Shown in pieces: positions 1-64,000 of a stretch of DNA of 64,000 nt. Made by a program: the position numbers and the translations under genes. Each line of letters begins with the position of its first letter. The first letter of the stretch is position 1. The notes beneath the pieces were generated by a model that did no database searches, was not told where the DNA came from, and saw only the letters and a list, made by a program, of their open reading frames with translations. The stretch comes from Eukaryota sp. TZLM1-RC (lineage: Eukaryota; Protista; Metamonada: BaSk clade): NCBI GenBank assembly GCA_040285825.1, contig JAUPSS010000006.1:310001-374000 (forward strand), given 5' to 3'.

Positions 1-1247
1 GTGTGTAAGATTATTATAAAAAGATGTGTATTCATCTGATTTATTTGTACTACGTTTTCTATCACGTTTATCGCCCCCCCCCCCCCGACGCTTTTTTGAA
101 CCAGGTCTTCCCAGCATTTTACAACATTTTTCTTCAGGATGTTTGTTGGTTTTGCATGAGCTACACCATTGCTATGAGGATTTGGGTCGACTACGTCTAG
201 AATTCTCTCTAGAGCTTTCAAAAGGACCGTTTTACTGGCTTCATCCTTATTGCGCGGGGGCGTGTTTGCCAAAAGCTGTTTTGATTAAATTGAGGATTCA
301 AGGCTATTGACCTTGTTTACAAATACATTTTCCAAATCGAAAACATCATCACCAGTTTCTTATTACTCGTATTAAACTTATCAATCCAAATATATATAAA
401 AATGTCCATCAATTGGCTGTTAGTTTTATCGTTAATGGACGTGCGGAGTTTCATTAATTGACAAGTTTGAGAGAAAAATAGTGGGTAACTTTTGGTATTT
501 TTAAACGTTGTGATACCGAGCATTAACATTAATTGATCTGTGATTAGTAAGAAAATTCAAACCCTTCATCTAGCCAAGCTAGCCAATGAGCAATACCGTT
601 GGTTTCGACTCTGTTGGGTTCATCTGCAACACAAACATCAGATTTTTAGTTGCAAAAATTCGCAAATTTACCGGTATCGGGAGTTAAGTAAACTTGGAGA
701 CCAGCCTAAACTTAATAAAAAATAATTACAAACTTTTTGCAAAAGACGCACAACAGTGGTTTTCCCAATGGAGGAGAGACCAGAGATATATAGACGTTTC
801 TCTCTGAAAGCACTTTTAACTCCAATAAGAAATTCATCATTTAGTTTGTTATTACCCTACAAATTATCCAAGATTTCAGAATAAAGTTAACAAATAGATT
901 AAGGATGAATAGATATTTGATAAATAGAATCAAAAATATTAAAATTGTTTAAGATTAGTGATGAGATATAAAAATAAATAAATATAAACGTATTACAAAG
1001 TTATTAAAATTAATTCATATAATTATTTCAATTTTAAAAATTCTAATAAATATATTGCTGACAAAATTGAAGATTAACGTCGACGGTTATAATGGTGTTG
1101 TTAATAACCTGTTTCTCACAGATTGGATGCAATAACCTTTTTGTGAATTTTGGCAACTCTGTGGGATAAAATAATCTGCAACAACAATAATTTGTTTTCT
1201 TTAAATTGGGCTTCACAATAAAATAAAATAAATTCAAGTGTCTGTCA
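1..1247. repeat. Left arm of long inverted repeat (partner 61927-63198); probably extends beyond the window start
   Basis: Window start GTGTGTAAGATTATTATA is the reverse complement of 63181-63198. Similarity runs to TCTGTCA (1247) / TGACAGA (61927). The ORF track gives near-identical translations for both arms. Confidence 0.95.
432..835 (-). pseudogene. SF3 helicase domain (CRESS Rep/NS1-like) fragment with two mini-introns, left copy
   Basis: Manual translation: LYISGLSSIGKTT (Walker A), DVCVADE (Walker B), INVNARY (B'), then a motif-C-like PTxFLSN. Frame is joined by removing two GT-AG introns. In-frame stops are present. Confidence 0.7.
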
Positions 1248-1689
1248 GTAACTAACCATAGGTCGTCTCTTTGATCTGATGCATTGTCTATACAATATAT
1301 ACAATCTCTATCTCTGTGCAGAACTACCTTAGCTTTCTCAGTGGCGAGTGGTATGTTGGAAATCCACATAGTGCCGTGCCTCCTCTGGATTTTTATGGTC
1401 CACAACCTGGTGTATGCCATTCCTTCAACAGTTCCGTCTTTCTACATTACCCCCAACCATCACATACTTCTAGCTTGGTCTCTTTTCTCTCTGTATATCC
1501 ACACTCCAGCCCTTCAGCAAGTAATAATGATAAATAATAAGTTCATCTTTTCAACAACGTTTCTCTAATGTCATCCTCTGACGAACATCTTGATAAACAA
1601 TCTATCACCAATCATATTCAGTATCATAAAAAAACAGTAATGATTTAGTTTATGACCAAAACAAACATTAAGCCAAAAGGAAAATAACC

Positions 1690-2033
1690 AATGCAAATAT
1701 GCTGATCCCCATATTTCTACACAGTGACTATCTAGGATAAACCTTGACAGAGCACACTGGTAGATGAAAAGTATCGGTACAGTTGTAACAAAAAGGCACT
1801 ATTTGAACGAACTTATATGCGCTCACAACGAAATTGAGAAAGGTTTTCAATATCGACATATATTTCAGCAAAAGGAGAAACTTCAGGTGAAGTTTTGACG
1901 GACTGTGGTGAATCAGTCCTTGGTATATTGGATGATGGATCTTCTATAGTTTTGATAAACTCCTTCTTTAAATACTTGTGGAATCTATCCCTGATTGATT
2001 GGTATGTGTGGCAGAGGAGCTGAGATTCTGTGA
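1690..2033 (-). repeat. Inverted duplicate of ~44455-44795 (3' part of the Rap1-Myb-like ORF and downstream)
   Basis: Reverse-complement match, e.g. CTATAGTTTTGATAAACTCCT vs AGGAGTTTATCAAAACTATAG. Confidence 0.85.
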
Positions 2034-2087
2034 TTCGCTAAATGAATGTTAAAGGGAATCAATTTAGAATGCAAGGGTTTGATTTTC

Positions 2088-2420
2088 CACTCTAGCAGGA
2101 AGTTTCTATCAGAAGCGTTCTTAGTCATTCTATAAAGTTTTTCCAGTGTCCGTCGATAAAACTCTCTGTTTGAATTGAACTTACTTTTTTGAGCATCATA
2201 TGTGTGTTGACCACTCCCAGATACCTCGACATCATTGGAATAGGAGGGTTAGATGGATGAGATCGGCGTTGATTACCCGTAGATATTGAATCCATGTTGG
2301 TAGGTGAACGTGATGAATGATGCAGTACTCTGCTTGGTCTCAAACATCCATCGAAGCCTTCATTCAGAGGAGAAGAAAACCATTTTTTTTGAATTGGAAA
2401 TCTTTGTGAATGTCTGACTT
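2088..2420. repeat. Block duplicated in inverted orientation at ~36865-37232 (and partly ~61855-61905)
   Basis: Translation RPSRVLHHSSRSPTNMDSISTGNQ is shared by ORFs 2125-2343(-) and 36956-37156(+). Confidence 0.9.
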
Positions 2421-2438
2421 TTGACTAAATTATATCAC

Positions 2439-2986
2439 CTCTATTGTCAAATCTGTTTGATACTGAAGATGATTTTCATAAGAATAATAGAGGTGATGTT
2501 ATATTACCTGGATTAGATGGAAGTTTCATTTTATTGGATGTAATGTCTGTTGATCCTTGTAATGCCTCAAATGAAAGGCCAGTTAATTCTGAAATTCATA
2601 ATCCTCTTTCAAATGCTGAAAATTTCAAATTCAAAAAATACAATGAACCTTTGTCCAAATTGGCCAGTCTACAGCATGCAAAATACAATTTGTATCCATT
2701 TGTATTTTCCCTTTTTGGTTCACTTGCACCAACTGCTTTACGTTTTTTGGAAGATTTTGAAATGATTGTAAAGAGAAGAACTGGCAGAAATTTCAACAGA
2801 TTGTTTTGGCAAAATAGAATTGTGTTTTCTATTTTTAAGGGGATGTTGAAGATGGTTTCTGATGCTTTGCTTTCTCTTGGATCTCACTATGAGAGAGTTG
2901 CATCTAGTGTTTTTGTTTTGGGAGAGATGGTTTTTTTAGATGTTGATTTATAGGTTTTGAATAAAATTAAAAAATTTTTTAAAAAA
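2439..2986 (+). mobile_element. 5'-truncated CRE/SLACS-like non-LTR retrotransposon insertion (RLE endonuclease end, poly(A), 12-bp TSD)
   Basis: ORF 2444-2953 has RGDVIL..LLDV..AENFKFKKY..YPFVFSLFG (PD-(D/E)xK RLE). AATAAA and an A-rich tail follow. TSD AAATTATATCAC at 2427-2438 and 2987-2998. Empty-site paralogues near 50740 and 33915. Confidence 0.85.
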
Positions 2987-3261
2987 AAATTATATCACTA
3001 CTGATGAAGATTGCTTTCACCAGATTGCTGATTCAACTATTGATTTAGTGAATGTGTTTGCTACCCATGGTCATTTTATACACATCAAAAGTAATTTGAC
3101 TATGATTATTGCTATGTTACTGAAGTATCATTTCAATTTAAATTCAATGGTGATATATGGTAAATTTATTTAAATTTTGTGTCTCATGGGGTTTACTTCT
3201 TTGAAATTTTGATTTTAACTTTGTGTTTTTTCGCTTATGTTTGTTTACTACTATTTTATTG

Positions 3262-3500
3262 GAGTCTCTACCAAATATTGAGAGTAATTCTCTTTATTTT
3301 GAGTCTCTATTTATAAATACATAATCGACTGAGTAATCATCAATCAATCAGTTTTTAACTGTTTGAGGTTGATTACGGCCAAGAAAGATCTGATTACGTG
3401 TGTCTGTATAGTCTACATGTTTTTGGATCTTTGTAGGTTTGATACTTACAACAATTTTATTTAATGAATTAATTTGAGGTTTTCTTTTTTTACCTCAACA
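3262..3500 (+). repeat. Dispersed ~230-bp core repeat, copy 1
   Basis: GAGTCTCTACCAAATATTGAGAGTAATTCTC...GATTACGTGTGTCTGTATAGTCTACATGTTTTTGGA, shared with six other loci. Confidence 0.95.
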
Positions 3501-4699
3501 AAATTAATTTATTTTTATTTTCTTTATTTTTGGCTGGTAAACCACTTTCCTTTCTTTTTGGCTCGGTCGAACTTGTATAGGATTGTATATTGTTGTTTTT
3601 TGATTTGACCAACCGAAATAAATGTTTCTTCCGTCAATTGTTTTCGTACAGCCTTACGGGAATTTTCTGCTATGTAACCTGTAAGAACTGGAAAAAACTC
3701 CAGCTTTTCCCCTTTGTACATTTCACTTTTTGATTTTGACAAATTTGAAGGTTTTCTACCCGGAGGAAACAGTGCATCATTAAAAGCATAATCCTTGAGC
3801 AATAGTAGGTACTGTTTAAATATATGGATAAACTTTAGTTGGAATGACGACCTTCCGCCATTTGTCGGTTTTTTTCTCTTGTAAATTTATCTATTTTTGG
3901 AATGAGATTCTGTTTGATGTTTTGCTATTTACCACATCTTTTACTTTTAAAGCCATTATATCGGATTATGAAAAAATACTAGAATAAAAATAAGGAAAAA
4001 TTTCTTTTGAAAAAATGGATTTCAATTTCAGTTGCATCTATCCAATAATGTTGTAGTATGTGAAAATTTACCCTTGCGAAACGAAGTAACAAGTTTCTCT
4101 GCTGGAGGATACACATACATTTTGGTATTCGTCTTGGGTGGAAGGGTGTTTTCAACCAACCATCTTCATATTCAAAAAGGACACCTAGTTGTTTATCGCG
4201 AACTGTGGGAGTTCCTGGTGTGAGATTTGGGGTTGTACAATAATTTGGAGATACTTGTACTTCTTCGTTCTGTGGATTCTCCTCTTTTATCGAATATCTG
4301 GATCCTTCTGTTTTTTCAAATTTGTTAATTGTGGACATTGATTGTTTTTTGATAACATCGAATTTGGCAGCTCGTCTAACTTTTGGTGTTGCTAATTTGG
4401 GCACCGAATAACCTTTGTTGATATATTTGCGCTACAATTGTTTTATTATGAATAGTGTATGGTTGGTGTTGAACAGTGTTTTCTGGAACGTTGGAAATGA
4501 TTCGCAAAATGAATGTTAAAGGGAATCAATTCTTTTCAGTTTCATCCCATCCTTTATTGTTTTATATACCATTATGATTTTTTATTATTTAATTGACCAA
4601 GACTTTTCCTCCTTAGCTGCGGCAATGAGACCTCTTAATATAAATTGTACTTTTAGAATATTATATTGAGCTATTGCATTCCTTACATATTCATCAACC

Positions 4700-4969
4700 T
4701 AACATCCTAATTTACACTGACGCCTCTGAAAAAACTATCACAGAAATCGGAGGCCTCCATGTCAATCCCACTGTCGCTACCGCAACAAAAACAACAAAAC
4801 AGAAAACCTAGCATTAATTGAGAATAATAATTGTTAGTCTATACACTATTTTATTGAGTGTAGTTAAACTTATTTATTTATACTTGTCAATTAGTTTTAT
4901 GTTTATTGTTACCTCATTTCCGTCGTAATAAATTACTCTCTCTTTATACATATGTATGTACTATCAACA
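4700..4969 (+). mobile_element. Ty3/Gypsy RNase H fragment followed by an LTR-like segment (4832-4969)
   Basis: NILIYTDASE motif (inverted copy at ~13365-13510). The TGTTAGTCT...TATCAACA segment shares CGTAATAAATTAC with the 53178-53338 LTR. Confidence 0.55.
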
Positions 4970-5087
4970 TTGTGTTTAGCTTATTTCACTATACATATTC
5001 AAGACCACTGTGATTCGAACACATGTAACTGGTACTTCTTGAGAGTGTCTATATTGTTGTTTTCGGAAGACATCGAAGTTATAGAAC

Positions 5088-5174
5088 AATGGGGCTATAT
5101 TGAAAAGGATGTTTATGAATGGGGCTATTTTGAAAAGTGGGTGTTCTCAAATGGGGCTCTTTTGTAAATATCCC
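5088..5174 (-). repeat. Three ~31-bp AATGGGGCT repeats; possible Mutator-like terminal repeat remnant
   Basis: AATGGGGCTATATTGAAAA / AATGGGGCTATTTTGAAAA / AATGGGGCTCTTTTGTAAA. The minus strand starts GGGATATTTACAAAAGAGCCCC. No partner TIR was found. Confidence 0.35.
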
Positions 5175-5180
5175 AAAATG

Positions 5181-5749
5181 TTTTTGAAGTTATGTAAAAT
5201 GATAGGGATTATGGTCAATGATAATGAAAATCTACACATTATACTCACATTCACACACTTTAAACACTATCAACATTGTTTTTTAGCTTATTCGATTATA
5301 CATATTCAAGACCACAGTGATTCGAACACATTCATTTTTCCAACATTATTTTCCAACATAAAAGTTGAAGAAAATAGTAAAATGAGATAACCAAAATATC
5401 ACATTACATAATACTGATTTCAATGAATTAACAATGTTGTAAGTAACACATAGAATCTGTTTGTAGAATTTAACAAAGATTTATGAAAGAGTTGTATGAC
5501 TTTTTTTGACTTTCTCTATCAAATATTAAAAACTCTTATATACCATTTTATACTCGCAAAAACAAATACAATACACACATAATTTAAAAGTTTTACAATT
5601 TTATAGTTTATTTTGAAGTTAGGCAAAATGATAGGGATTATGGTCAATGGTAATGAAAATCTACACATTACACTCACATTCACACACTTTAAACACTATC
5701 AACATTGTGGTTAGCTTATTTCACTATACATATTCAAGACCACAGTGAA
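5181..5749. repeat. ~430-454 bp tandem unit family, cluster 1 (~1.3 units)
   Basis: AAAATGATAGGGATTATGGTCAATG recurs at ~5196 and ~5626. The same unit is at 10521-11183 and partially at 4960-5022 and 37236-37337. Confidence 0.9.
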
Positions 5750-10100: not shown

Positions 10101-10109
10101 TCCAAATTG

Positions 10110-10526
10110 TTACAAAAAGAATGTGTTTCCTCATATTCAACTGTTTTGCCATGTTTTTTGGCACTAAAATAAATTTTTTGTGTTCTTGCTAAATGTGAAG
10201 TCAATTGAAGAACTATTTCACAAGAACTGTTCTGATCTTCCATCAGTTTTTTCACTTCTGCCATCAGTATTTGCTTCCTTTTGTGATATTTGCTGGTCAT
10301 TTTTTTGGAATCGTAATTTCTGACTTAGGAGTTCAGTTCTGATGTGGAAAAGTTCTGAGAGGATAGGCTGGTATCAGTACCAGAACGGAGGCGGAGCATG
10401 TGTATTTATGTGGATACGAGGAGAGAAAGCACTGATGCTTTGTTTGTGAAGGACGTGAAGTATGGGAAGAGGAGTTGAGGTAAAGCAAGGGTAAGTTAGT
10501 ACAACTCAATAATCAACATTATTTTG
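10110..10526. repeat. Direct duplicate of 54147-54561
   Basis: Near-identical sequence; ORFs 10028-10300 and 53333-54298 share QNSSCEIVLQL...HLARTQKI. Confidence 0.95.
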
Positions 10527-11183
10527 AAATAAAATTTCAAATTCTCTATCAAATATTACAAATTCTTATATACCATTTTATACTCGCAAAAGCTTATATA
10601 ATACACAGATACTTAAGAGGTTTTACAGTTCCATAGTTTATTTTGAAATTATGCAAAATGATAGGGATTATGGTCAATGGTAATGAAAATCTACACATTA
10701 CATTCACGTTCACACACTTTAAACACTATCAGCATTGTTTTTTAGCTTAGTCGACTATACATATTCAAGACCACAGTGATTCGAACACATTCATTTTTCC
10801 AACATTATTCTTCAACATAAAAGATGAAGAAATTAGTAAAATGAGTTAACCAAAACATCACATACGTAATAATAATATCAATAAATTAAAAATGTTGTAA
10901 CCAACACATAGAATTGATTTGTAAAATTTAACAAAGATTTATGAAAGAGTTGTATGACTATTTGAAATATGTGAGATTTTAAAATAAAATTTCAAATTCT
11001 CTATCAAACACTACAGACTCTTATATACCATTTTAAACTTGCAAAAGCTTATACAATACAAACAAAAGTAAGAGGTTTTATAATTCCATAGTTTATTTTG
11101 AAGTTATCCAAAATGATAGGGATTATGGTCAATGATAATGAAAATCTACACATTACACTCACATTAACACACTTTAAACACTA
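10521..11183. repeat. ~454 bp tandem unit family, cluster 2 (~1.5 units)
   Basis: The unit marker AAAATGATAGGGATTATGGTCAATG occurs at ~10656 and ~11110. Confidence 0.9.
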
Positions 11184-11845
11184 CTTAAACACGGCTGATT
11201 CCAACAACTGAAGTTTGGTGCCTGACTGTCTAATCAAATAACCAATCAAATCATGAAGAAGTGATTGAGATTGATTAAGGTTTTCCCTCACGACAGATTC
11301 TACTTTGTCCCCTGATTGAAGTACCAAGGGGGTAATAGTAGAAGTATTGGCCTGGAACTCTTCAATTTGCTTTGTGAAGGCTTCCCTGGCTTTTGAAAAT
11401 CTCACAAGAGCTTCATGGTGTTGAGAGTGGCCATGAAGCAAGCCACAGGAATTGCACAAAGCAACCTTACACTTGGTGCAATAATGCTCGATTTCCATGT
11501 TCTTGTGGTGAGGGCATTTGGGAAGGGAGACGTTGGATCTTCCTGAGAGAGGGACGACGGTGTGAGATTGAAAGGTGTTGGGTCTTTGAAGGAAAGAAGA
11601 ACAGTCCTGGCAAAAGAAACGTTCACAATCAGCGCAGAAAAGGGTAGAAGAGGCTTGTTCGCATTCAAAGCAGGGCTCGGAAAGAGCCTCAGCTTCAATG
11701 ATGTCACGTAGAGTGAAGTTGATGCGGTGAAACATCGAGGGAATCTTCTCGCGACATTGAGGACATGTGGAGTTGTGCTTCTTCGAGGGGAGCAGACAGC
11801 GATCACGGCAGAAGCTATGACCACAGTAGGACAGTTGAACGAAGA
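11184..11845 (-). pseudogene. RING / B-box / B-box / coiled-coil (TRIM-like) gene fragment
   Basis: CGHSFC...CPQCR (RING C-half), CFEC...FCADC..FCQDC...H (B-box 1), CPHH...YCTKC..LCNSC...H (B-box 2), then a helical region. Both ends are truncated by other fragments. Confidence 0.85.
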
Positions 11846-12269
11846 TGTATTCGGAGAGGGAGAGGAAGGACAAGGAGAGAGTTCTCCTGCCAACGGGAAA
11901 GAAAAGAGATACTTGCTGTGAATGGGAGAGAAAAGTATAGTAGTGAAAGTGGTGTAAAACAGATATCTTCACTATAGCTTCCAATGTGACAAACAGACAT
12001 GTGAGATGACAATTTATTACAACAATAAAGGTCAACACTACTGAACCAATAACATATAAGCCTAATTAGAGACTGAAAGAACTACAACAGAGTACAACAG
12101 AAAAAACACAGTACAACAGAAACATCACCATTTTTTATCTTACAAGGAATGAGTTTCGTACATCAACCAAACCTGGAAATCTCACACTTCTCTGCCGGTA
12201 GAGAACCCAATTGGACAGTAACAAACCACTTACTAAACCTCTGTAGTACTGCTGCTAGAGGTTTAGTGA

Positions 12270-12536
12270 GTGGAATTTTATTGTGGTCATATAGGAACGA
12301 CAGAGTTCAAACTATGATCACAATGAAAAACTTGACTTACCAAGGAACACTCTCCGGTACCACCACAATTCAGGTTTTGAATCAGTCTTCTTGGGTCATT
12401 CCCCATGACTCCCTTCCCATTATAAAAACAGCAGATTGGGAATCTACGCGACACTTACGTAAACTCAAAGCCAATTACTCTAACACATACAGACGTAGGC
12501 TCGAGAAATCTGTTCTCGAATATGCTGAAAAAGAAG
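12270..12536 (+). repeat. Inverted duplicate of ~55652-55918, uncharacterised coding fragment
   Basis: RVQTMITMKNLT...KSVLEYAEKE appears in ORFs 12149-12694(+) and 55181-55906(-). Confidence 0.9.
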
Positions 12537-13354: not shown

Positions 13355-13364
13355 CTCTGAAATA

Positions 13365-15480: not shown

Positions 15481-15880
15481 TTGTTTCTAACATCCCTGTT
15501 GTTTGTGGTGTTCAATTATTTGTGGAAAATGTAGAATTATAATGCAATATCCCGCTGCTGAACGTAAAGACACATTTAAAGCACTATCCCGCTGATGTTT
15601 TCAAAAAGTTTAATTGTCAGATGGAAGCAACATTATGGCTGGACCAACAGTGTGATACTTCATACATAGACGAAAGTGACTACATGTCCAGTAACTACCG
15701 AGAACCAGCAGTGGTTATGCTCAAGAGGATTTGAAAACAATGAATGAAGAGAATTGGTATTTTTGCTATGTCATGAACCAATGGCATACTCGATTAGGAG
15801 GACGCGAAAAACCTTTAGGCATAAACGCAGTAAGTTGTCAATAAGAAACCCTAATTAATAGATAGATAACAATGTAAACA

Positions 15881-16062
15881 TTAAACCTAAAAAAATCCAA
15901 AAACATGTAGACTATACAGACACATGTAATCAGATCTTTCTTGACCGTAATCAGCTTCAAACAGTTGAAATTTGAATGATTGATGATTACTCAGTCATTT
16001 ATGTATTTATTGATAAAGACTCAAAATAAAGAGAATTACTCTCAATATTTGGTAGAGACTCC
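15881..16062 (-). repeat. Dispersed core repeat, copy 2
   Basis: Reverse complement of the 3262-3500 core. Confidence 0.9.
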
Positions 16063-16238
16063 AATAAATAAACCATAATTAGATTCGTGCTGATCAATAT
16101 CAAAATCAGTAATAGTGATTGATAAATGAGAAAACAATTAATTGAAACTAAATAAAAAAAATTTCCAGAATAATTGTTAAAAGAAGTGGTGATAACTACA
16201 AAAAAATAACACAAAAAAGAAAAAAAGAAGCAAAAAAT

Positions 16239-27768: not shown

Positions 27769-27769
27769 G

Positions 27770-38900: not shown

Positions 38901-38915
38901 TTTGATTTTAGTTCT

Positions 38916-44295: not shown

Positions 44296-44303
44296 TTCAA
44301 AAC

Positions 44304-49184: not shown

Positions 49185-49603
49185 ATTGGATTGATAATTC
49201 TGAAGCTATTGTTGACTTTGTCTCATGTAATGTTGCAAATACTTTGGTTCACAAAAGAAAACTTAATCCTGTGAATGCTCTTGATTTCAATGCAAAAGAA
49301 AAACATAGAAAATAAGATAAAGATATTGAAGAGGCTAATGCTGATGAAAATACACAGCTAGTTTTTATTGCTTTCCCATTTTCGATAAACGGAAGATTAT
49401 CAGTTGAAGCAGAAACTATTTTGAATGACTTCCAAAAAATGGTTCAAGAAAAAACAATGAAAAGATTTGATATTTTTTTATGACGCTCTCGAATTCAATT
49501 TGCCATTATTAATAGATAACCTCGGTTTTTCAATCGAATTAGAGAAGTTTTAGCTAGACAGCAAGCAGATCAAGATTTTGTAGAGGAAATCTTGGTTCAA
49601 TGA
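49185..49603 (+). mobile_element. RLE endonuclease fragment of a further CRE-like non-LTR family
   Basis: Manual translation AIVDFVSCNV..AKEKHRK*..FIAFPFSINGRLSVEAETILNDF..RIQFAI. Confidence 0.7.
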
Positions 49604-49689
49604 TAGTTGTCCCATTAGTTATGAATTAATTTAATTAAGTGTGCATGTTCAATAAATATTTTATATGCTCTATTGGATGAAATTGAATT

Positions 49690-51345
49690 TTTTTTGTCAA
49701 TCCGATCGATCGGAAATTTGAAACTGAAAAACTGTAAACATTACAGATATCCTTTCAAGATATCCTCTGAAACCGTGCCAACCCAACTCTCTTCATTTTT
49801 GGTTTAGTTCTTGGACTTTATCTGCTTTTCTTACATCACCTCCAATTACCTTGTTCTGCGATTGGTGTCTGTCGTTCTACACCATCTCCCTATGTGAATG
49901 ATGCTGTGAAAACTTCAGTCATTTCTCTTTTCTTTTGATCTACTGACATTACTCTAAGTCGTCTCATTTTTGTGATCTTATGAATTGTCCTTTCTTTCAC
50001 TCCAATCACTCCTCTCCGTCTCTATATTCTCAACTCTCCTTTCAGCAAGTGTACATGGTATCTTTTATTTTGCATTCTGTGGATGTTACTTCATTAAACT
50101 TTATCCATCCATGTCAAGGGGTCAATACATGGAAAGTTGGATTGGTGAATTTTTGAGAGTTCATGGGACTCGAACCCCGAACCTGGGCGAATTCAATTAT
50201 TTTGTTTTAACTTTTTAATTTCTTAAATTAAAGTTGGTTTTTTGGTCATGGTCAGCTGTCCTTTTTCTTTTTTTGCTGATATAACAATTTTCTACTTGTA
50301 ATTTTTTATGTTTAATGGACCATTTTCGTTTTCAAATTTATTTTGGAAATTATGTAAACTCAATCATTAAACAACCCATATTTCAACCATGAATCTAAAA
50401 TAAATCATTGATTAATGTACATGACTCAACGTTGGTTTTCACTATTGTTAAAACTCTAGGTTTAGTTAATTTTAATGGTGATGATGTAAGTAGATGTGCT
50501 ATTATTGAGATTTTTACACTTGCTGATTCTCATGTTGATTTCGGTCATGTAGTTGTTGGTTGCGAATTCAACCTATTGTTACCACTGATGTCAACATTAG
50601 AACAACTCGAGTTTATGCTTCAGCTAATCATTATTTTTCAACTAATTCAATGTTTGGTACGATTGATGTTGAATTTGAAAATGTTGAAAGTTTTTGATTT
50701 AAGAATTAAAATTCATGTCAAAAACTGCAAATTTTGACTAAATTATATCACTACTGATAAAGATTGCTGTCACCAGATTGCTGATTATACTATTGATTTA
50801 GTGAGTGCTTTTGATATCTATGGTCATTTTATACTCTTAAATTAATTACTCTTATAATGAATTTAATTATGATTAATGATGTGTTTCTGAAGTATCATTT
50901 CCATTTAAATTCAATGGTGAAATATGGTAAATTGATTTAAATTTTGTTTATCATGGGGTTTACTTCTTTGAAATTTTGATTTTAACATTGTGTTTTTTCG
51001 CTGATTTTTGTTGACTATTATTTTATTGGAATCTCTACCAAATATTGAGAGTAATTCTCCTTATTTTGAGTCTCTATTTATAAATACATAAACAACCGAG
51101 TAATCATCAATCATTCAGTTTTTAACTGTTTGAGGTTGGTTACGGTCATGAAAGATCTGATTACATGTGTCTGTATAGTCTACATGTTTTTGGATATTTG
51201 TAGGTTTAATACTTACAGCAAATTCAGTTATGAATTAATTTGAGGGTTTCTTTTTTTACCTCAACATGATTAATTCATTTTTTTCTATTATTTATTTTTA
51301 CATGTAAGATAGGTTTAATTATGAGATGACTAAAGCAGAATCGAT
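49690..51345. repeat. Long family member including core repeat copy 6 (51028-51280) and B-box (50166-50176)
   Basis: Inverted paralogue of 33170-34690 and 59757-60690. Confidence 0.85.
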
Positions 51346-52169
51346 CTTTTGAATTTCTTCCTTTACTGTCATATTCCCTTTTCTAGAGATTGTCAATTTT
51401 CTCAAAAAAAAATATTCTTCCATTTTATTTTCACAAAACTTCAGCACTTCTAAACTTCTGCTTGTTCAGCAGCTGGAAAGTTTATTTGAGGGTTAAAACA
51501 AGGTTTAACATAAAAAAAGATACTTTTTCAAGAAATTGCTGCTCACAGATGTATTTTCGTACATATCTTGCTCGTACATGCTTCTTGAATCCAAATCATT
51601 CTGATTGTCCTTCTTAATCAAAGTTTGGATAAAAAGATAAAATATTCAAGTCAGATTGAAAGATTGTTGCCGCAGACTCAATCAAAGTTTGGTTATCTTC
51701 TTTTTCCTCGGAACAACAGGCACATTAAACCTCAATGACCTACAGGAAATCTTTGAAGGAGATTCAAGATAAACTTACATGCATTTAATAAAAAGAATCT
51801 TTCTCTTGAATTATTCAGATTGAAATGGATGTAGTATTCGAGAACAGAATCAACAACTACTTCTTCGGGCTGGGCTAATAATTCATCTGGCAAAAGAGAG
51901 AGAGGATAATTGGCACATACATTCGTTTTATCTAGAGCTCTACAATGAACACGAATAAAAAAATTTTTGTCCAGGATTGACAATTTTTAGGTAGACTTGT
52001 CTTCACGTTAGACGCTAATTGACGAGCCCGACAAGCAAGGTAAAGAGAAAGCCCTTTTCTATTGATAAAAATACGTTTCTGAGACTGCAGCCAAGCATTG
52101 AGAAAAAGATTGAATGAATTTCTATAAGGCACTAAAGAATTTTCCCATGAAGAAACAAGAGACCTGTCT

Positions 52170-52247
52170 TGTTGATGCCGAAAAGTGGGGTTAAGATAAA
52201 GATGATTTATTTTCTATTCATATTATAAAAGCCTAAGGGCGCCAACA
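52170..52247 (-). mobile_element. 78-bp LTR candidate
   Basis: Follows PPT AAAAAAGGGGAGAAGCAG; termini TGTTG...CAACA; internal AATAAA. Confidence 0.65.
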
Positions 52248-52322
52248 CTGCTTCTCCCCTTTTTCAAAATCAATCGGCTTTATAACGAATATTCAACTTA
52301 CATCAATAACTAATAAACTAAA

Positions 52323-53177
52323 CTAATTCTTCTGATTTCTATTACTACGTCTAGGCCGTTTAGGGGCGCTAGACTCGGTGGAAGGATCTCTTCTATTAGA
52401 AGTATGTTTGCCAACTTTTCTAATTCTCTTGTCTTTACTGAATAACTTATAAGCTTCTGAATGTTTTACTGAATTGAGAGGCTCTTCAGTTGTCTCACTG
52501 CCAAACCATTGAACAGTACAGAAACTACCTGAGTCAGAACTATACTCTGAGAGGATTTTCTCTATAACATGTTTTTCAGCATCGCCTGCTGCGACTGCCT
52601 TAAGGAATTCAAAATCCTGAGGATTCTCGGCGTTATAGACTTTACAATCTTTCTTAGCAGCCTTTAATTCGGAGCCAGTGGTAAGATTCTTTAATATTAA
52701 AGTAGAGTTGGAAGGATGATCTATTATTAAAAATGGTCCGTTCCAAGATCCATGTAATTTATTATTTTGTTTGGTTTTCCGAAGGACATAGTCACCAATA
52801 TTAAATACTATAAAACGCGAATTAGTATTATCTACTGAAATCGGAGTATTAAATGTTTGGTGACGCTCTGCTTCTTCCCTTTTTTCTTGTAGACGAATAT
52901 TTTTCAATTTAGTGCCATCTAATAAAGGAATATTGGAATCGAATTTTGATAAGTTTCCTACTATATTAGCAGGGTCTGATCTTGGACTAATCGAAGAACC
53001 GAACATGAGTTCGTATGGGGTAAAACCTGTTTTTCTGCTTTTAGTAGAATTTATTAATAGTTGGGATATGGGTACATAAGTAGACCAATTTCCATAATCA
53101 TTACAATCAATTAATAATTTCCTCAAGCATTGAAGAACGTCTCTAAGTTTACGTTCTACAAGTCCATTACTTTCAGA
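52323..53177 (-). mobile_element. Ty3/Gypsy integrase C-terminal half with GPY/F motif and chromo-like tail
   Basis: SESNGLVERK, TGFTPYELMFG, FNIGDYVL, WNGPFLI, VIEKIL..VQWFG. Confidence 0.9.
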
Positions 53178-54036
53178 GTAGTTGATGATCTTGGCTGCTG
53201 TGTGTTAGAATTCATACAGTATAGAGTAACAGAAGTGTAATTTATTACGAAGAGGAATTGTATTCTCTCTTCTTAAACTAATAGGCGGAATACTAATAAA
53301 CTATATAATAAAACTATAAATACTATTCAAGACTAACACTGCCTTTTTCTCTCTTTCGAGCGACGAGCCCTGGAAGCTCGAGTCACAGGAGGTGAACTAA
53401 TAGAATTGGTACGCTTCTTGGGAGGAGCGGATTTAGTACGGCAACGTGCTTTTGAAGTCTTGATAAAGTCTTTATACGCGGCAGTATTTTGGACTGTGGA
53501 CACGTGTTCAGTGGTGATCTCTTTTCCAGGCCATTGCACTTGGCAAAAGTCACCGTCCTGACTGAGCACCTTTTCTATAATGTGTTCTTCGACATCACCT
53601 GCAGCAACCCATGAGTGGAACTCATCGTAGGCAGGGAGGCTGGAGTGCCAGAGTGCTAAATGTTTGACGCTAGCTTGGACGATCGTACCGGTGCAGAGAT
53701 TCTTAATATTCACGGACGAATTGGATACGATTTTAGTAATTAGGAAAGGTCCTAAATAATCTCCATGTAGCTTAGTGGAGGAACTAGAAGCTCTCAATAC
53801 CAATTGACCAACTTCAAAAGGATTTGGAGTTGCAGATCTGGTTAGCTTGGAAGCTTTTGAAGCTTGATGGTGTGCTGCCTTTTCCTGTTTTTCTTTCAAC
53901 CTTCGAAATTTAGATTGAATTTCTTGTATAAAAGATGACTCAGACGTCGAGCTTTCAATGATTTCAAGAATTTTACCAGGGTCTGATCTAGGAGACACAT
54001 CTGAGCCAAAGATCACTTGGTATGGAGTGTGGTTTG
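53178..54036 (-). mobile_element. Ty3/Gypsy integrase C-terminus, PPT and ~160-bp LTR (53178-53338); continuation of the pol at 56382-58850
   Basis: NHTPYQVIFG..FEVGQLVL..YLGPFLI..IEKVL..VQWPG; AAAGAGAGAAAAAGGCAG then TGTTAG. Confidence 0.9.
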
Positions 54037-54561
54037 AATTGACAATATTACTGCCGCTTACAGAAGCAGCAGTTTCATCAGCCACTTTCTTCTCTGGACT
54101 GAGGAAATCAAATTCTGGAAACCAAAATTTTAAAAAATGATGGTTTTTACAAAAAGAATGTGTTTCCTCATATTCAACTGTTTTGACATATACTTTGGCA
54201 CTAAAATTAATTTTTTGTGTTCTTGCTAAATGTGAACTCAATTGAAGAACTATTTCACAAGAACTGTTCTGATCCATTAGTTTTTTCACTTCTGCCATCA
54301 GTATTTGCTTCCTTTTGTGATATTTGCTGGTCGTTTTTTTTGGAATCGTAATTTCTGTCTTAGGAGTTCAGTTCTGATGTGGAAAAGTTCTGAGAGGATA
54401 GGCTGGTATCAGTACCAGAACGGAGGCGGAGCATGTGTATTTATGTGGATACGAGGAGAGAAACCACTGATGCTTTGTCTGTGAAGGACGTGAAGTATGG
54501 GAAGAGGAGTTGAGGTAAAGCAAGGGTAAGTTAGTACAACTCAATAATCAACATTATTTTG

Positions 54562-55130
54562 CCACTCTATTATCAAGGCCAGTGCCTTGATACCTTAAAG
54601 CGTTGAGAGCTTCAGGTGTTACGCATTCAGCTAAGCCTCTAGGACTAATGCGCATGGCAGATCTGAAGAGATCCCATTCATGAATTGGTTCACTGAACCG
54701 TTGATCAGATGCCAGTTCTGCTGATCTAGCTAGTTCAAGTTCTTCGCGAAGTCTAGCAACTTCGCTGGCCAAAGCAACTTGGGCAGGATCCTCAATGTTG
54801 CCACGAGCCTCGTCTACAATTCTATCCGTACGACTCCAGAGGATAAACTTGTTAACAAACTTGAGGAGTTTATCAACGTCTCTTAAATCAGTCGCGTCGA
54901 GAGTTGGACGTTTGGGGCGGTCTCTGCGTCTATTGTCCCTATCTCTTGATCCCACCATGGAAGATAGGAGAAGGTTACTATCGTAAGTACCTGAGAAAGT
55001 AGAACGTGAAGAACTAACCGTGGAAGGTGTTGGTTGAGCCGCATGTTGTGAACTTGTTGAACCAGTGGAAGGAGGTGTGGGTGGAACCACTGACTTGCTC
55101 GCAGCAGCTTTTCTTTTAGGTAAATATTCC
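54562..55130 (-). mobile_element. gag-like N-terminal fragment
   Basis: RPTLDATDL..LKFVNKF..HEWDLFRS, similar to 41680-42018. Confidence 0.5.
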
Positions 55131-56381
55131 TTGATGGGCCCAGGAGACAGACCCTCAAATCTGCGTCTTCTTCTGCGTTGTTAAGGTTTACGAGTGGGAG
55201 CAGGTTTACGAGTGGGAGCAGGAGGAGCAGGAGGAGCAGGATCAACATCGTAAATTTCTGAAGATTCAGGATGATTGAGAATTTCAAAATTATTGGAGGC
55301 ATTGGCATTTACCTCATGAACATCTGGCAGGTCACCTATAGGATTGTCAGCACCAAAAAAAATATCAGGATTATGAATTTGAGCAGCAGAATTGGGAAAA
55401 ATATTTGCACGGTTATTACCAAAAGCAAAACTACCAGCATCGGATAAGCCAGGGGCAGCGGCATTGGGATAAAAACAGGGAGCAGCACGGACATCGGATA
55501 TTGGATTCTGGTGCCAAACCAAATATTTGGAGTCATCTATGATGTTCTCCAATATTGGCTTATTGGTTGCTGGATTAATAAAAGAAATATTTGTATGTTC
55601 ATATTGTTTCAACAGGTTGCTATTTGAAGTTAATAAGCGAACCTTGATGCCTTCTTTTTCAGCATATTCGAGAACAGATTTCTCGAGCCTACGTCTGTAT
55701 GTGTTGGAGTAATTGGCTTTGGGTTTACGTAAGTGTCGCGTAGATTCCCAATCTGCTGTTTTTATAATGGGAAGGGAGTCATGGGGAATGACCCAAGAAG
55801 ACTGATTCAAAACCTGAATTGTAGTGGTACCGGAGAGTGTCCCTTGGTGAGTCAAGTTTTTCATTGTGATCATTGTTTGAACCCTGTCGTTCCTAAATGA
55901 CCACAATAAAATTCCACTTTCCGATGCTTTTACTATTAAAAAAGCATCATCTAAAATGATAAATGATGTACTAGTCGATTTTCTTTCAATATTAAAACAA
56001 TCTGTTTCTTTCTTTTTTTGTACATATTTTATTTAGGATTAAATTTCGTAATACTTTCCTTGTTATAAATAAAAAATAAAATCATTTTTACTATTTTTAT
56101 TGTTATAAATAAATAGATTACTTAATTAAAATATCTATATCTTTAAATACGTCACAAAATTCTTTAAAGGTATTTGACTTTTTATCTTATTAGAAGCTCT
56201 TATAATAAGATAAAAAAGAGTTGCATGCAGTCTTTATGTACTAGATGTGATCAACTTGTGATCAAATTTTGTGTGAAATTTTGTGTGAATAATGTTGGCT
56301 ATGTGTTACTTGGTCAATACATACTCATGATTACATTTTCAATTGATTTTGTATATATTTGAATTAATAGTGTTTATTAAT

Positions 56382-58850
56382 TGTGGTTTGTTATCGAACT
56401 CTTGGAAGAGTTGATTAATAATTGCACATAAGGCAAATATTCAGACCACACATCGTAGGCGTTGAAGTCTACGAGCAATTTCCGTAGGTTTTGCAGAATG
56501 TCTCTGTGTCGGCGCTCTACCAGGCCGTTGGACTGAGAAAACCTAGGTATTGACTTTGACACCTCTATGCCCAAAAATTTGCTTAGTTCGTCAAAGACAG
56601 CCTTGGAAAATTCGGGTCCATTATCGCTGTGGATTTGAAATGGAATACCAAAGATGGCACAGACTTTCCAAATTAATGCATCTGCAGTAAGATTGGCATT
56701 TATCTCTTTTAAAGGCACGATGATCGTGAACCTAGAAAAGCTGTCAATAAATACAAGGATGTATTTGTAGCCTTCTTGATCTTCAGGAACAGGACCAATA
56801 ACGTCGGCGTTGACGCGAGCAAAGGGTCTGTCAGCCCACAATGAACCGGTTGGGGGAACATGCAGTTTGGGAACTGGCTTTGTTTTCTGACAGGAGGGGC
56901 ATTCTTGGACGTGCTTATTCATGTCAGTGAGCATGTTTGGCCACCAATTATCGCTATTCCTGAGCTTGTTCAGGCTTTCAGCTTTGCTTGGATGGCCTCC
57001 TTGCAGAAGTCCGTGCAACAAGTTAAGAGTGTCCTTAATGAGTGATTTGCGAATCACTATCTTTTTGTCGTGAGTCATGTATAAATCAAGATGATTGTTA
57101 TGAACACTGTTGTTGAAAGAGGGGTCTTTGGAAGCTTTGGCAAGCTTCTGTTCCGACCTAATCCTACAGAACGATGGCTCAAAAATAGGGAGGTCGTTGG
57201 AACATCGTTCTTTGTTGACCATGATACGCTCGAAGTTGTTTAAATCTTCTATGTAGTATCTTTCGTTTTCTGTTCCATCTATTTTATCGATATAAAATAT
57301 TGGATGAAAATTTGGAGACATTTGATGGGACAAATGATTGATCTCTTGATGGTCTATAGGCGGAACTATTCGAGACAACATATCAGCCCAGAAGTTATCT
57401 TCCCCTTTGGTGTGTACCAATTCAAAGCAGAATTCAGAGAAAATGGGTAACCATCTGGTTACAATTCTGTTCTTGTCTGGAGCTGTGAACATGTAGGTAA
57501 GGTTTTGATGGTCTGTGAATATGACCAGTTTCCTTCCTTTCAAGTAGTTTTCGAAACCACTTTGTGTCAACATCAGTAAGATGGCATAGAGTTCCTTTTG
57601 GTTTGTCGGCCAGTTCTTTTGCGAGTTGGTTAACAAGCGGCTAAAGAAGCTGATAGGCCTACATTTTCTGTTGATCAGGGGAGTACCGGGGTCGTCGACT
57701 TGTTCGATTTGTTCCCATATCACGCCGCCTACAGCAATGTCGGATGCGTCGCAACTTATTAAAATTTGATTTTCCAGTGGAGGTAAGTTGAACGGCATGT
57801 GCTGAGCTATCAGTTGTTTGATCTATTGAAGGAGTCCGTCATGCATGTTGGTCCATTGTAGGCGTTGCGCGCGGGGTTTGGGTTTAATGTTGGCGTTGTT
57901 CCCAACCTTCTTAGTCAATCTGATGATAGGAGCAATGAGCTCAGATACCTGAGGAAGCCATTCTCTAATGAAGTTGACTGATCCTACGAGGCTGCGGACG
58001 TCTTTGATTGTCTTTGGTCTAGGAAGATTCAACAAAGATTCAACACGAGTGGGATCGATGGTCCGTTGTTTGTTTTGGAAAACACTGCCCAGTATCTTGA
58101 TGGGGTGTCTGGAAGACACGAAATGGCACTTTGGAAGTCCCAAGGAAACTCTTTTGCATCTGGCTTGATCAAGGACGCGGCGGAAGCGCTCGATGAATTC
58201 GTCAAAGGTTGAACCTATGATTATGAAGTCATCTATATAGATGAATACACCCTCTCCAGAGAAGATGTCAGCCATGACGTTTTGGAAAACGGCTGGGACA
58301 TTTTTGAGGCCAAACGCTGCACGTTTAAACATGATGCTTTTACCAAGAATGCTCAGGGCTGTTTTGTGCCAGTCCTTTTCAGCAATTTTGAGTTGCCAAA
58401 AGGCTTGGGGGGGGGGGGGTCGAGGGTGCCTATGTAGTTTGCTTGGGAGAGAAATACTAGCACATCGGAGATCCTTGGAAGGTTGGGCTCAACAGGAATG
58501 GTGTTGGCGTTGACTCCGTCCTTGCCACTATAATCACCAGTAAGGCGGGGCTTACAGTGATCTGGGTAGACCACTAGACAGACAGGGGAGCTGAACTCGT
58601 GGTTCGATGGAACAGCAAATCCAGAGTCTACGAGTTCGTCGAAAATTTGGTTAGCGACCTCTAGCCTGGCTGGATTCAGGGTCCTGGGGGGTTTTCTAAC
58701 TCTGACGTCTTCATTGTAGAAGTTGATTTCCATGGGATTGGTGGGCAAACCAATCTTTCGCCTACTAATGCACAAGGAGAAGTCGGGAGCCATTGGTATC
58801 TCACATGCCATGTCCGGATTACTCCAATACTTTGCAAAACCCACCAGGTT
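56382..58850 (-). mobile_element. Ty3/Gypsy pol (RT-RNase H-integrase), frameshift at G-run ~58406-58418 and one in-frame stop at 57823
   Basis: SPVCLV..PRLTGDY; FGLKNVPAVFQ; YIDD; CDASDIAVG; KELYAI; FTDHQNL; HHCC-type H..GH..CPSCQ; DVIGP / SDNGPEF / NGLVER. RT-RH-IN order. Confidence 0.95.
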
Positions 58851-59756
58851 TCTGGTTAGTGCTTTCAATAGCCTATTGTAATGTAAACGGTATTGGTGGT
58901 CCATGAGAATGGGGATATACGTCAAGATGCAATTTCACCTATATTACTCTAATGATCTTAATGCTTTTTCCATGTTAATCCTTCCTGACGTTCTCTTGCT
59001 GAACAATGTTAGTCTTTCATCCAGCAGCTGATCTACACCCATATTTCAAAAGAAGGAAATGAACCATTGTATTTGATTGTATGTTGTGTTGTACATGGAT
59101 ACATAAATCAGTATTGGTATTTATTTTTGTTTCAACATTTTGTCAACACTAGTCAACAATTGGCAATGTTCCAATTATCGGGGTTAATGCTCAGATTTAG
59201 CAAGACATTGTATTTGGATATAATTGTATACTATGACATGACTACTGCAATTGTGTTTCTTGTATCTGAAGAACAAATGCAACATTTTATAGATTTACAT
59301 GGTATTTATAGTTTTGTATATTTGATAAATAAACAAGGTTGTAATAGTCTTTATTATTGAAGAGTATTAAAAAACCAAGTATTAGCCTAGAAATAGGCTA
59401 TTCATATCCTTACAGGTGATAGGCCCATATAAATAGGCCCAGATAGATGTTTGTTTAATAAATTTTTAAAGTTTTACACCTCAAGTTTTACACTTCAAAG
59501 AATAAATAACAATAATTGTATGATGATAGTATTATAAAGGTTTAAAATATTTACGTTAACGTTTTTAATGGTATGAAGAGAAAAAATAGCAGCTGAATTC
59601 AAAAATATCAGTAGTTTGTCAATTATTTGGTTGTGAGGATGATAGAAGTTTTGTTAATGGTTAATTCTAACGGTTCATTTGTTGATATTTATATAACATC
59701 CGAAATCTACACATTTTTTTGTTGAAAACTTTTATTATATTTTAATTAAAAAAACA

Positions 59757-60690
59757 CCTGCTTTAGTCATGTCAATACATAATAAAAATTATATAAAATG
59801 AAGAAATACAAAATAAAGAAAATAAAAATGAATAAATCATCTTGAGGTAAAAAAAGAAACCCTCAAATTAATTCATAAATGAAGTTGTTGTAAGTATTAA
59901 ACCTACAAAGGTCCAAAAACATGTAGACTATACAGACACATGTAATCAGATCTTTCTTGACCGTAATCAAGCTCAAACAGTTAAAAACTGAATGATTGAT
60001 GACTATTCAGTCGTTTTTGTTTTTACTGAGTGATTCAAAATAAAGAGAATTACTCTCAATATTTGGAAGAGACTCCAATAAATTAGTAGTAAACAAAAAT
60101 CAGCGAAAAAAAAACAAAATTAAAATCAAAAACTTAAAGAAATAAACCTTATGATACTTATCATTTAAACAAATTTACCAAATGTCATAATTGAATTTAA
60201 TTTAAACTGATATTTCAGAAACATAGCAATAATCATAGTCAAATTAATTTTGGTTTGTAAAAAATATACATAAAAAACTACAAGTAAAAAATTGAAATAA
60301 CAGCAAAAAAAGAAAAGGGACAGATGATTAAGACCAATAAAGCAACTTTATTTTAAGAATTTAAAGAGTTTAAACAGAATAACTGAATTCGCCTAGGTTC
60401 CGGGTTCGAGTCTCATGAACTCTCAAAAATTAACCAACCCAACTTTCCATGTATTGACCCCTTGACATGGATGCATAAAGTTTAATGAAGTAACATCCAT
60501 GGAATGCAAAATAAAAGATATCATGTACACCAACTGGAAGGAAAGTTGAGAATATAGAGACGGAGAGGAGTGATTGGAGTGAAAGAAAGGATATTACTTG
60601 AGATCAGAAAGCATGGGAGACTTGAGGTAATGTCAGTAGTTCAAAAGAAGAGAGATGGCTGAAGTTTTCACAGCATCATTCACATAGGAA
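59757..60690. repeat. Long family member with core repeat copy 7 (59825-60076) and B-box-like motif (60403-60413)
   Basis: Paralogue of 33170-34510. Confidence 0.85.
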
Positions 60691-61926: not shown

Positions 61927-63198
61927 TGACAGACACTTGAATTTATTTTATTTTATTGTGAAGCCCAATTTAAAGAAAACAAATTATTGTTGTTGCAGAT
62001 TATTTTATCCCACAGAGTTGCCAAAATTCACAAAAAAATTATTGCATCAAAGCTGTGAGAAACAGATTATTAACAACACCATTATAACCGTTGACGTTAA
62101 TCTTCAATTTTGTCAGCAATATATTTATTAGAATTTTTAAAATTGATATAATTATATGAATTAATTTTAATAACTTTGTAATACGTTTATATTTATTTAT
62201 TTTTTTATATCTCATCACTATTCTTAAACATTTTTAATATTTTTGATTCTATTTATCAAATATCTATTCATCCTTAATCTATTTGTTAAGTTAATTCTGA
62301 AATCTTGGATTATTTGTAGGGTAATAACAAACTAAATGATGAATTTCTTATTGGAGTTAAACGTGCCTTCAGAGAGAAACGTCTATATATCTCTGGTCTC
62401 TCCTCCATTGGGAAAACCACTGTTGTGCGTCTTTTGCAAAAAGTTTGTAATTATTTTTTATTAAGTTTAGGCTGGTCTCCAAGTTTACTTAACTCCCGAT
62501 ACCGGTAAATTTGAGAATTTTTGCAACTAAAAATCTGATGTTTGTGTTGCAGATGAACCCAACAGAGTCGAAACCAAAGGTATTGCTCATTGGCTAGCTT
62601 GGCTAGATGAAGGGTTTGAATTTTCTTACTAATCACAGATCAATTAATGTTAATGCTCGGAATCACAACGTTCAAAAATACCAAAAGTTACCCACTGTTT
62701 TTCTCTCAAATTTGTCAATTAATGAAACTCCGCACGTCCATTAACGATAAAACTAACAGCCAATTGATGGACATTTTTATATATATTTGGATTGATAAGT
62801 TTAATACGAGTAATAAGAAACTGGTGATGATGTTTTCGATTTGGAAAATGTATTTGTAAACAAGGTCAATAGACTTGAATCCTCAATTTAATCAAAACAG
62901 CTTTTGGCAAACACGCCCCCCCCCCCCCGCAATAAGGACGAAGCCAGTTAAAAGGTCCTTTTGAAAGCTCTAGAGAGAATTCTAGACGTAGTCGACCCAA
63001 ATCCTCATAGCAATGGTGTAGCTCATGCAAAACCAACAAACATCCTGAAGAAAAATGTTGTAAAATGCTGGGAAGACCTGGTTCAAAAAGTAATATCAAA
63101 AGCGTCGGGGGGGAGGGGGGGGGGGCGATAAACGTGATAGAAAACGTAGTACAAATAAATCAGATGAATACACATCTTTTTATAATAATCTTACACAC
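61927..63198. repeat. Right arm of long inverted repeat (partner 1-1247)
   Basis: See left arm. Confidence 0.95.
62341..62744 (+). pseudogene. SF3 helicase (CRESS Rep/NS1-like) fragment with introns 62443-62470 and 62614-62638
   Basis: EKRLYISGLSSIGKTTVVRLLQK^AGLQVY..N*KSDVCVADEP..WLDEG^SINVNARNHNVQKYQKLPTVFLSN. Confidence 0.72.
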
Positions 63199-63339
63199 AA
63201 TTCAATCAACACCATTTATACAATGAGCAAAATTGATACAAATTATAGACACCTCAATCCGTTAAAAAGATTTAGAGAGTCGTCCAATCCTGTCGGTTCT
63301 ATCCACAGTGCTAGACTATCCAGGGTGACAGGCAACTAA

Positions 63340-63447
63340 ACAAGTTCTAACGGGGAACTTTGGTTGAAATGTTCAATAAACAACGTGGAAGTAAAGGGCG
63401 AAATTGATAATGGAGCTGCATTCTCAGCATTATCAATGGTTGATTAA
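63340..63447 (+). mobile_element. Retroviral-type aspartic protease fragment
   Basis: LWLKCSINNVEVKGEIDNGAAFSALS (DxGA motif). Confidence 0.6.
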
Positions 63448-63784
63448 ATATCCATTGAAAAATGTTGCTAAATTTAGAAAATAACCAACAATACTAGGCA
63501 AATCAGTTTCTTCAAGACATCCAATAGTTGATCAACAACCACCATTACAATTAGTTTCAATTATAAGGAGAGTCCTCCAAAGGAGAGTGAACTTCCCGCT
63601 GAGAGAAGTCAGAAAGAAAGTGACCTTCCCCATAAAGAGAGTGATCATCATGTTGAGGATGACTCAGAGTTGTACAACCTTCGAAACAGCCTGAAATTAT
63701 TAATTATTGTGTGGGATATTTGGGGCGTCTGATTATTCTGTCATGGCGTGTTCTAATAAGATAAAAAAGTCAGATACCTTCAAA

Positions 63785-64000
63785 GAATTTCGTGACGTAT
63801 TTAAAGATATAGATATTTTAATTAAGTAATCTATTTATTTATAACAATAAAAATAGTATAAAAATGATTTTATTTTTTAATTATAACAATGAAAGTATTA
63901 CGAAATTTAATCCTAAATAAAATATGTACAAAAAAAAGAAAGAAACAGATTGTTTTAATATTGAAAGAAAATCGACTAGTACATCATTTATCATTTTAGA
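63785..64000. repeat. Inverted duplicate of ~55952-56165 AT-rich block
   Basis: GAAAATCGACTAGTACATCATTTATCATTTTAGA vs TCTAAAATGATAAATGATGTACTAGTCGATTTTC. Confidence 0.9.

Follow-up and report, generated by a model that had tools for sequence, protein, structure and literature searches.

We examined a 64-kb stretch of contig JAUPSS010000006.1 from Eukaryota sp. TZLM1-RC (positions 310,001 to 374,000; hereafter the window, 64,000 nucleotides, numbered from its first letter), whose source is likely a free-living anaerobic protist. The window holds a mosaic insert of 2345 bp (54037–56381), composed of at least three pieces and devoid of terminal repeats, between the two copies of a 9-bp target-site duplication. 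It interrupts the pol gene of a Ty3/Gypsy-type element (53333–58934, minus strand), recognised by Pfam RVT_1, RT_RNaseH, Integrase_H2C2 and rve, and with a C-terminal tail. We hold with about even confidence that the insert was made by error-prone DNA break repair, which copied and joined nearby and repetitive DNA. An earlier note on this DNA had described four mosaic blocks bounded by direct repeats and attributed them to one process that stitches unrelated fragments together and inserts them at staggered breaks. A stitched, multi-piece insert at a staggered break is found in one of the four cases. A common system for all four is unsupported, because the 13-bp motif is dispersed, no empty site was found for the 21-bp pair (where contig cover is thin) and the 34-mer starts where its flank breaks off.

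A mosaic insert between 9-bp target-site duplications

The four direct repeats lie exactly where the earlier note had placed them: 21 bp at 18096/29691, 9 bp at 54028/56382, 13 bp at 37646/39761 and 34 bp with one mismatch at 2031/4498. As a chance model we used ten order-3 Markov copies of the window and counted repeats 1–12 kb apart. About 5085 9-mers and 34 13-mers are expected by chance, and no 21-mers or 25-mers. The real window contains 54 repeats of at least 21 bp at this distance, mostly from its own repeat families. Since both lengths are common by chance, the 9- and 13-bp pairs alone carry no meaning, and every pair therefore needs an empty site.

Contigs of two sequencing runs, X1 and X2, out of the three runs listed, all made from one sample and none of them RNA, were compared with the window. 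One contig in each run joins 54027 straight to 56382. Mismatches to the window number 33 in 457 and 8 in 152 letters for the first, and 31 in 421 and 14 in 422 for the other. Being about 93–97% like the window, the joining contigs are therefore other Gypsy copies (paralogues) without the insert. With 54037–56381 and one 9-bp copy removed, the minus-strand integrase frame is open again over the full 200 + 202 codons tested. The next-best excision frame, at 18096/29691, reaches 60 + 9 codons; the earlier note counted two excisions that restore a frame, but a six-frame reading of all four finds a long frame at 54028/56382 only. By repeat match, frame and contig joins, the two 9-bp copies (54028–54036 and 56382–56390, plus strand) are a true target-site duplication, the only pair of the four so shown.

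The leftmost piece of the insert, piece a (54037–54570, minus strand), is a low-copy gene fragment with a 96% paralogue at 10107–10526, fused in frame to the integrase tail. The resulting fusion frame (53336–54298, 321 amino acids) joins this piece of an unknown gene to the tail of the integrase. The left insert end truncates piece a in mid-frame, and the related protein P0122 continues past the cut with other residues. The left end thus cuts a gene, and no element terminus lies there. The fused left joint recurs with its frame open in P0121, at 96.6% amino-acid identity. This diverged copy indicates that the joint is no local assembly slip and was itself copied. P0123, from the same cluster as P0121, is identical to the window and was not counted as an independent copy.

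Pieces b–e (54575–56195, minus strand) comprise a putative gag-like block and its AT-rich upstream DNA, with paralogues of 96–97% at 12269–12536 and 63751–64000. The gag-like block has 36% identity over 74 amino acids to 41683–42105. These pieces may form one native stretch, and one X2 contig departs from the window sequence at 54575. In all, three stretches of the insert have 96–97% paralogues inside the window.

The right end is formed by piece g (56218–56381, 164 bp), a repeat whose loose ends lie at 56218 and 56382, the second being also the point where an X2 contig parts from the window. Its summed contig depth is 24706 (X1, at 56267), compared to 37 for the Gypsy contig, a depth which is no copy number. 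In each of the three runs the AT-rich g is hundreds of times as deep as the Gypsy and CRE contigs, and a weaker match to it lies at 28893–28931. It may be a satellite, a short interspersed element (SINE)-like element or extrachromosomal DNA. A short likeness had first suggested that g was the 3′ end of a CRE element; this candidate was rejected as it had no protein match, and g matched none of 120 fetched reverse transcriptase (RT) proteins. Metagenome scans for g and for the Gypsy pol returned nothing.

None of the four proposed inserts has terminal inverted or direct repeats, in agreement with the earlier note. Among the 28 pairs of insert ends, 2 reached the 95th percentile for random pairs and none passed the 99th. 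The absence of shared ends holds only inside the window: the 9-bp insert ends on the right in a repeat whose contig depth is far above the rest. As for the mosaic nature of the blocks, three of the four hold pieces with paralogues elsewhere in the window, and 37659–39760 holds none.

Joints and possible origins of the insert

Ten joints between pieces were collected. Two were mis-anchored: that of the 2.5-kb unit (see below) was dropped and that at 27869 was taken as a 1-bp overlap. Overlaps of 3–8 bp are present at five of the nine usable joints, compared to 7% by chance. Several joints also carry fold-back hairpins. The e/g joint lies in a hairpin with 14-bp arms and a 10-base loop (56179–56216), the longest of the nine perfect hairpins in the window; the paralogue at 63751 lacks its second arm. 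A hairpin with 9-bp arms is found at the a/b joint, another with 10-bp arms at the joint of a CRE piece with a helicase fragment (26601–26624), and a third, with 17-bp arms and one mismatch, where the paralogue of piece c begins (12226–12273). Hairpins scoring at least 10 occur at 3 of 24 hand-picked joints, compared to 0.7% of random places.

Among the mechanisms considered in the earlier note, templated repair synthesis best fits these joints, and it is favoured over template jumping because of the microhomologies, the fold-backs and the nearby donors. Close paralogues of three stretches of the insert lie in the window itself, whereas the close CRE relatives come from seven contig-length classes (see below). 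A staggered break would first open, the cutter possibly being the endonuclease of the resident CRE-like element or a transposase. The broken end would then prime short synthesis on other templates, the growing end switching at microhomologies or snapping back on itself. Alternative end joining would finally rejoin the ends, and fill-in would leave the 9-bp copy. In yeast, break repair yields multi-fragment insertions and fold-back insertions of 5–34 bp (PMC11724301). Metamonads are described as lacking Ku and DNA-PKcs, and Carpediemonas as having complete alternative end joining; the available sections of that study do not mention skoliomonads (PMC8516963), the group to which the nearest relatives of a reverse transcriptase in the window belong (see below).

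Several points weigh against break repair. The list of 24 joints was picked after the hairpins had been seen, and an unbiased test is weaker: among 137 alignment ends, four places fall at three hairpins, compared to 1.0 expected (P 0.02). Microhomology fails to separate repair from template switching by a reverse transcriptase. Transposases and target-primed reverse transcription leave a clean 9-bp duplication more typically than end joining does. In the copying between paralogues, those at 10.1 and 12.3 kb seem to have been on the receiving side. Finally, there is one shown case only.

It is possible, though we doubt it, that the CRE-like RT made the insert by target-primed reverse transcription. 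It would have started on a g-ended RNA and then either jumped onto further RNAs or copied the read-through transcript of a locus already mixed. Such an enzyme is resident and has acted here, as judged from a retrocopy with an A-rich tail and a 12-bp duplication (see below). The insert ends in the very high-depth repeat g, at whose edge, 56382, the X2 contig departs, and g may itself be the end of some SINE-like element. Chimeras of two and three parts with 10–20 bp duplications are known from Magnaporthe (PMC2104539), and the duplications of CRE elements vary in size (PMC12278014). Several features of the insert argue the other way. Neither end carries an A-tail, no CRE 3′ end can be recognised in the insert, and the 120 RT proteins gave g no relative. 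Loose letters upstream of g break the apparent frame (read by hand). The frame-bearing pieces (a and b–c) are antisense to a g-ended RNA, and an RNA of the other strand would end mid-frame. The fold-back at the e/g joint is moreover of a DNA type.

That no single stitching event took place appears quite unlikely to us. Insertions, deletions and segmental duplications would then have added up, the 9-bp insert being a copy of an already mixed donor stretch. The second copy of the fused left joint (P0121) indicates that joints were copied after forming, which speaks for such a sum, as do two pairs of filled and empty sites within the window, of 284 and 371 bp, which lack a duplication and look like deletions, and tandem duplications of 105, 355, 455 and 2541 bp. 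This explanation overlaps with break repair, and does not account for how a stretch that ends in mid-gene was inserted or how the 9-bp duplication arose.

We consider it very improbable that a dedicated mobile system lacking terminal repeats, such as a Mutator-like carrier of gene pieces, packages fragments and inserts them. The insert does hold gene pieces between 9-bp copies, and 9 bp is the usual length of Mutator duplications. However, it has neither terminal repeats nor shared ends, its left end cuts a gene, and no Mutator transposase was detected among the 37 long frames of the window scanned with Pfam. An assembly or amplification artefact is hardly credible: copies of a 2.54-kb tandem unit differ largely by run-length changes and, among the contig pieces listed, none bridges a filled joint, but paralogous pieces differ by 3–20% substitutions, the left joint recurs in a diverged second copy, and the duplication is exact and in register with the frame of the integrase, which is not to be expected of a chimera. 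Long reads are the basis of the published skoliomonad assemblies, and amplification is not mentioned in the available sections of PMC11316075.

Break repair, the reading that we favour, can be extended beyond the shown insert. The same process would account for the 21- and 34-bp pairs, either as short fillers copied from a template or as what is left of local duplications. The 13-bp pair would be a motif of its family, and ordinary retrotransposition, deletion and later segmental copying would have added the nesting. More broadly, skoliomonads, which probably lack classical end joining, might routinely heal staggered cuts of CRE-like endonucleases by template-switching repair, g being maybe a priming end. 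The products would be multi-fragment patches of transposon, giant-virus and host DNA with 9–34 bp duplications, and the process would inflate and scramble genomes and fuse frames more than transposition does. We think this broader proposal unlikely.

Resident retrotransposons and the other repeat pairs

The window, of 34.7% G+C, is a transposon graveyard. It consists almost entirely of broken repeats, with pieces of Ty3/Gypsy pol, two IS630/Tc1-type transposases and several non-LTR (lacking long terminal repeats) reverse transcriptases, and also holds the helicase fragment and host-like gene pieces. In self-alignment, 16% of it has a paralogue of at least 94% elsewhere within the window. Skoliomonad assemblies are 28–55% repetitive, compared to 4.5% in a barthelonid (table 1 of PMC11316075). 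The RT at 18120–19679 has its best relatives, at 91–95% identity, among named proteins of a skoliomonad metamonad, and 110 of the 120 matches listed for it are skoliomonad.

This RT (minus strand) is the 5′ half of a CRE-like element, with zinc knuckle and RT, and is cut inside the RT at 18120; contigs continue natively past this point. The layout, read in the window and in P0002, P0015 and P0080, comprises a zinc knuckle, the RT (Pfam RVT_1), a second knuckle and a restriction-like nuclease in a single frame, the knuckles and the nuclease being recognised by their motifs. The label 'CRE-like' is a provisional one, drawn from this domain layout. The nearest solved structures are L1 ORF2p and R2. 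Sixteen CRE proteins of at least 90% identity come from seven contig-length classes.

A 5′-truncated CRE-like retrocopy (2439–2986, plus strand) consists of the endonuclease end and an A-rich tail, 91% identical to P0080. A 12-bp duplication (2427–2438 and 2987–2998) flanks it, and its target is unbroken at 50732–50760 and near 33.9 kb. It lies inside the 34-bp block and was absent from the earlier note. Self-alignment of the window gave 17 candidate rows, most of them mismatched family copies, and the retrocopy is the only filled/empty pair among them with a clean duplication. Target-primed insertion has therefore worked here, and its products look different from the 9-bp insert. The variable duplication lengths described earlier come down to two shown cases, 9 bp and the 12 bp of this plain retrocopy. 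No further duplication was found ahead of the CRE-like 3′ ends at 8650, 36190 and 49650. The stretch 49182–49650 is the 5′-truncated 3′ end of a second CRE-like family, with a contig depth of about 340–630 in X1. Directly behind a tiny CRE-like 3′ end, at 36190–36245, a 12-bp word is repeated around 32 AT-rich bases of short self-copies, which looks like iterative templated filler.

The 34-mer copies (2031–2064 and 4498–4531, plus strand) are the only two in the window, and their length is beyond chance. The left copy starts, with a 3-bp overlap, at the point where a Myb-like fragment breaks off from its paralogue (44452–44799). A duplication needs flank and repeat to be continuous, and this reading is thereby weakened. 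The break agrees better with a templated filler or with a longer duplication that was afterwards trimmed.

The 21-mer, also present only twice and too long for chance (18096–18116 and 29691–29711, plus strand), has its left copy 3 bases from the cut end of the CRE-like element at 18120, and with one gap the match extends to the cut. This position fits a duplication as well as a filler. Contigs over 16700–30400 gave no empty-site joint for 18096/29691, at a cover so thin (bin depth about 0.3–2.5) that it decides nothing. Between the copies lie 2.65 tandem copies of a 2.54-kb unit with pieces of CRE-like RT (19886–26613), 99.4–99.6% alike, which could be either a recent amplification or an assembly effect. 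They end at the fold-back joint of 26601–26624 and are followed by a superfamily 2 helicase fragment (26578–27807, minus strand; Pfam Helicase_C, E 3.8e-05, above the cut-off), a candidate for the virus component of which the earlier note speaks. By features and predicted structure the part at 26578–27435 resembles helicases of Nucleocytoviricota, which also make up most of its atlas neighbours; this likeness is a lead without an alignment, and no relative was found in viral contigs. Beside the right 21-mer, the frame 29408–29665 carries what we take to be an exonuclease-like motif, presumably akin to family B polymerases; protein searches found no homologue of it and Pfam no match.

The 13-mer copies (37646–37658 and 39761–39773, plus strand) enclose a remnant of an IS630/Tc1-type transposase (37637–39104, plus strand; Pfam DDE_3). 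Five matches within one mismatch are found, compared to 0.75 expected, four of them in one dispersed family; the right copy belongs to this motif, which also occurs at 16710, 40852 and 44900. Judged from these letters the pair is probably a motif of the family, so that here the bounding repeats are common dispersed repeats, an outcome that the earlier note had listed among those that would refute it. The left flank of 37646 was tried as a continuation of the family and rejected, scoring no better than the insert side or random DNA. Contigs over 37101–57000, with a thin cover (bin depth about 0.3–2.5), gave no empty-site joint for 37646/39761.

Other repeats of the window are as follows. One family repeats a unit of about 455 bp and is present in at least six pieces (4960–5748, 10521–11183, 16819–16962 and 37239–37337 among them); its scatter within the window and its low contig depth suggest local copying. 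A non-coding repeat of 230–560 bp, part of a longer element, has seven copies 85–95% alike (2987–3531, 15840–16069, 30337–30623, 33139–33510, 42214–42537, 50740–51371 and 59757–60265). The segments 1–1247 and 61927–63198 form an inverted duplication of 1.27 kb, 96% alike and with G/C runs, with nearly the whole window between them. A RING and B-box (TRIM-like) gene fragment lies at 11181–12065 on the minus strand. The repeat families contain many GGTTCGAGTC-like motifs that look like the T-loop or B-box of a tRNA (at approximately 16290, 34225, 40120, 40160, 45290, 50165, 60400 and 60895), and neither a tRNA nor an Rfam family accounts for them. The window has no tRNA or Rfam match of note, and PHROGs gave nothing below E 0.01 for 14 of its frames.

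Comparison with known systems

Both leading processes are already known, no dedicated new system is shown, and the insert is probably not a new kind of mobile element; a claim to a new system would stand on one shown insert whose mechanism is inferred. The natural case in a metamonad seems to be undescribed. Our literature search found no description of skoliomonad repeats: only the genome paper pairs 'Skoliomonas' with 'transposable element', in a reference title, and its supplements may describe repeats.

Helitron capture leaves no duplication and has a 5′ TC and a 3′ CTRR, whereas here the duplication is present and the end letters do not agree. Pack-MULEs (Mutator-like elements) carry captured gene pieces between 9-bp duplications. 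The length found here falls within their 8–11 bp range, but the insert shows neither terminal inverted repeats nor a fixed left end, and no Mutator transposase was seen.

The resident element resembles the CRE clade (CRE1/2, SLACS and CZAR) in its one frame with zinc knuckle, RT and restriction-like endonuclease, its A-rich 3′ end and its duplication. Unlike the trypanosomatid members, its target is a dispersed repeat and not the spliced-leader genes, and it occurs as several families, dispersed and mostly broken. Chimeras made by long interspersed elements (LINEs), such as MINE and the tripartite chimera of Magnaporthe or U6-L1, likewise fuse unrelated pieces between short direct repeats, and a non-LTR enzyme is resident here too. 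In those chimeras the 3′ part of the LINE forms the end, and the parts joined to it are sense copies of transcripts; the present insert shares the duplication (9 bp), but shows no CRE 3′ end or A-rich tail, and the frames of its pieces a and b–c read antisense to an RNA that would end in g.

The class to which the favoured reading points is that of complex templated insertions at double-strand breaks, ascribed to alternative end joining, microhomology-mediated break-induced replication and fragment capture, and known from yeast rad27, RPA and dna2 mutants, cancer and plant filler DNA. In 54037–56381, and there only, a multi-fragment insert lies at a site which is unbroken in paralogues; microhomology and fold-backs are found at the joints, the hairpins being weaker in the unbiased test. 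As in the yeast insertions of PMC11724301, several fragments come from different loci, overlap by 0–8 bp, include short fold-back inversions and leave their donors in place. The differences are that the insert is natural, fixed, of kilobase size, in a protist and flanked by a 9-bp duplication, and that fragment capture in yeast uses classical end joining, which metamonads reportedly lack. If templated repair builds much of this DNA, it would provide a natural, genome-scale record of break mending in a lineage reportedly without Ku-based end joining, a process otherwise studied in yeast mutants and tumours.

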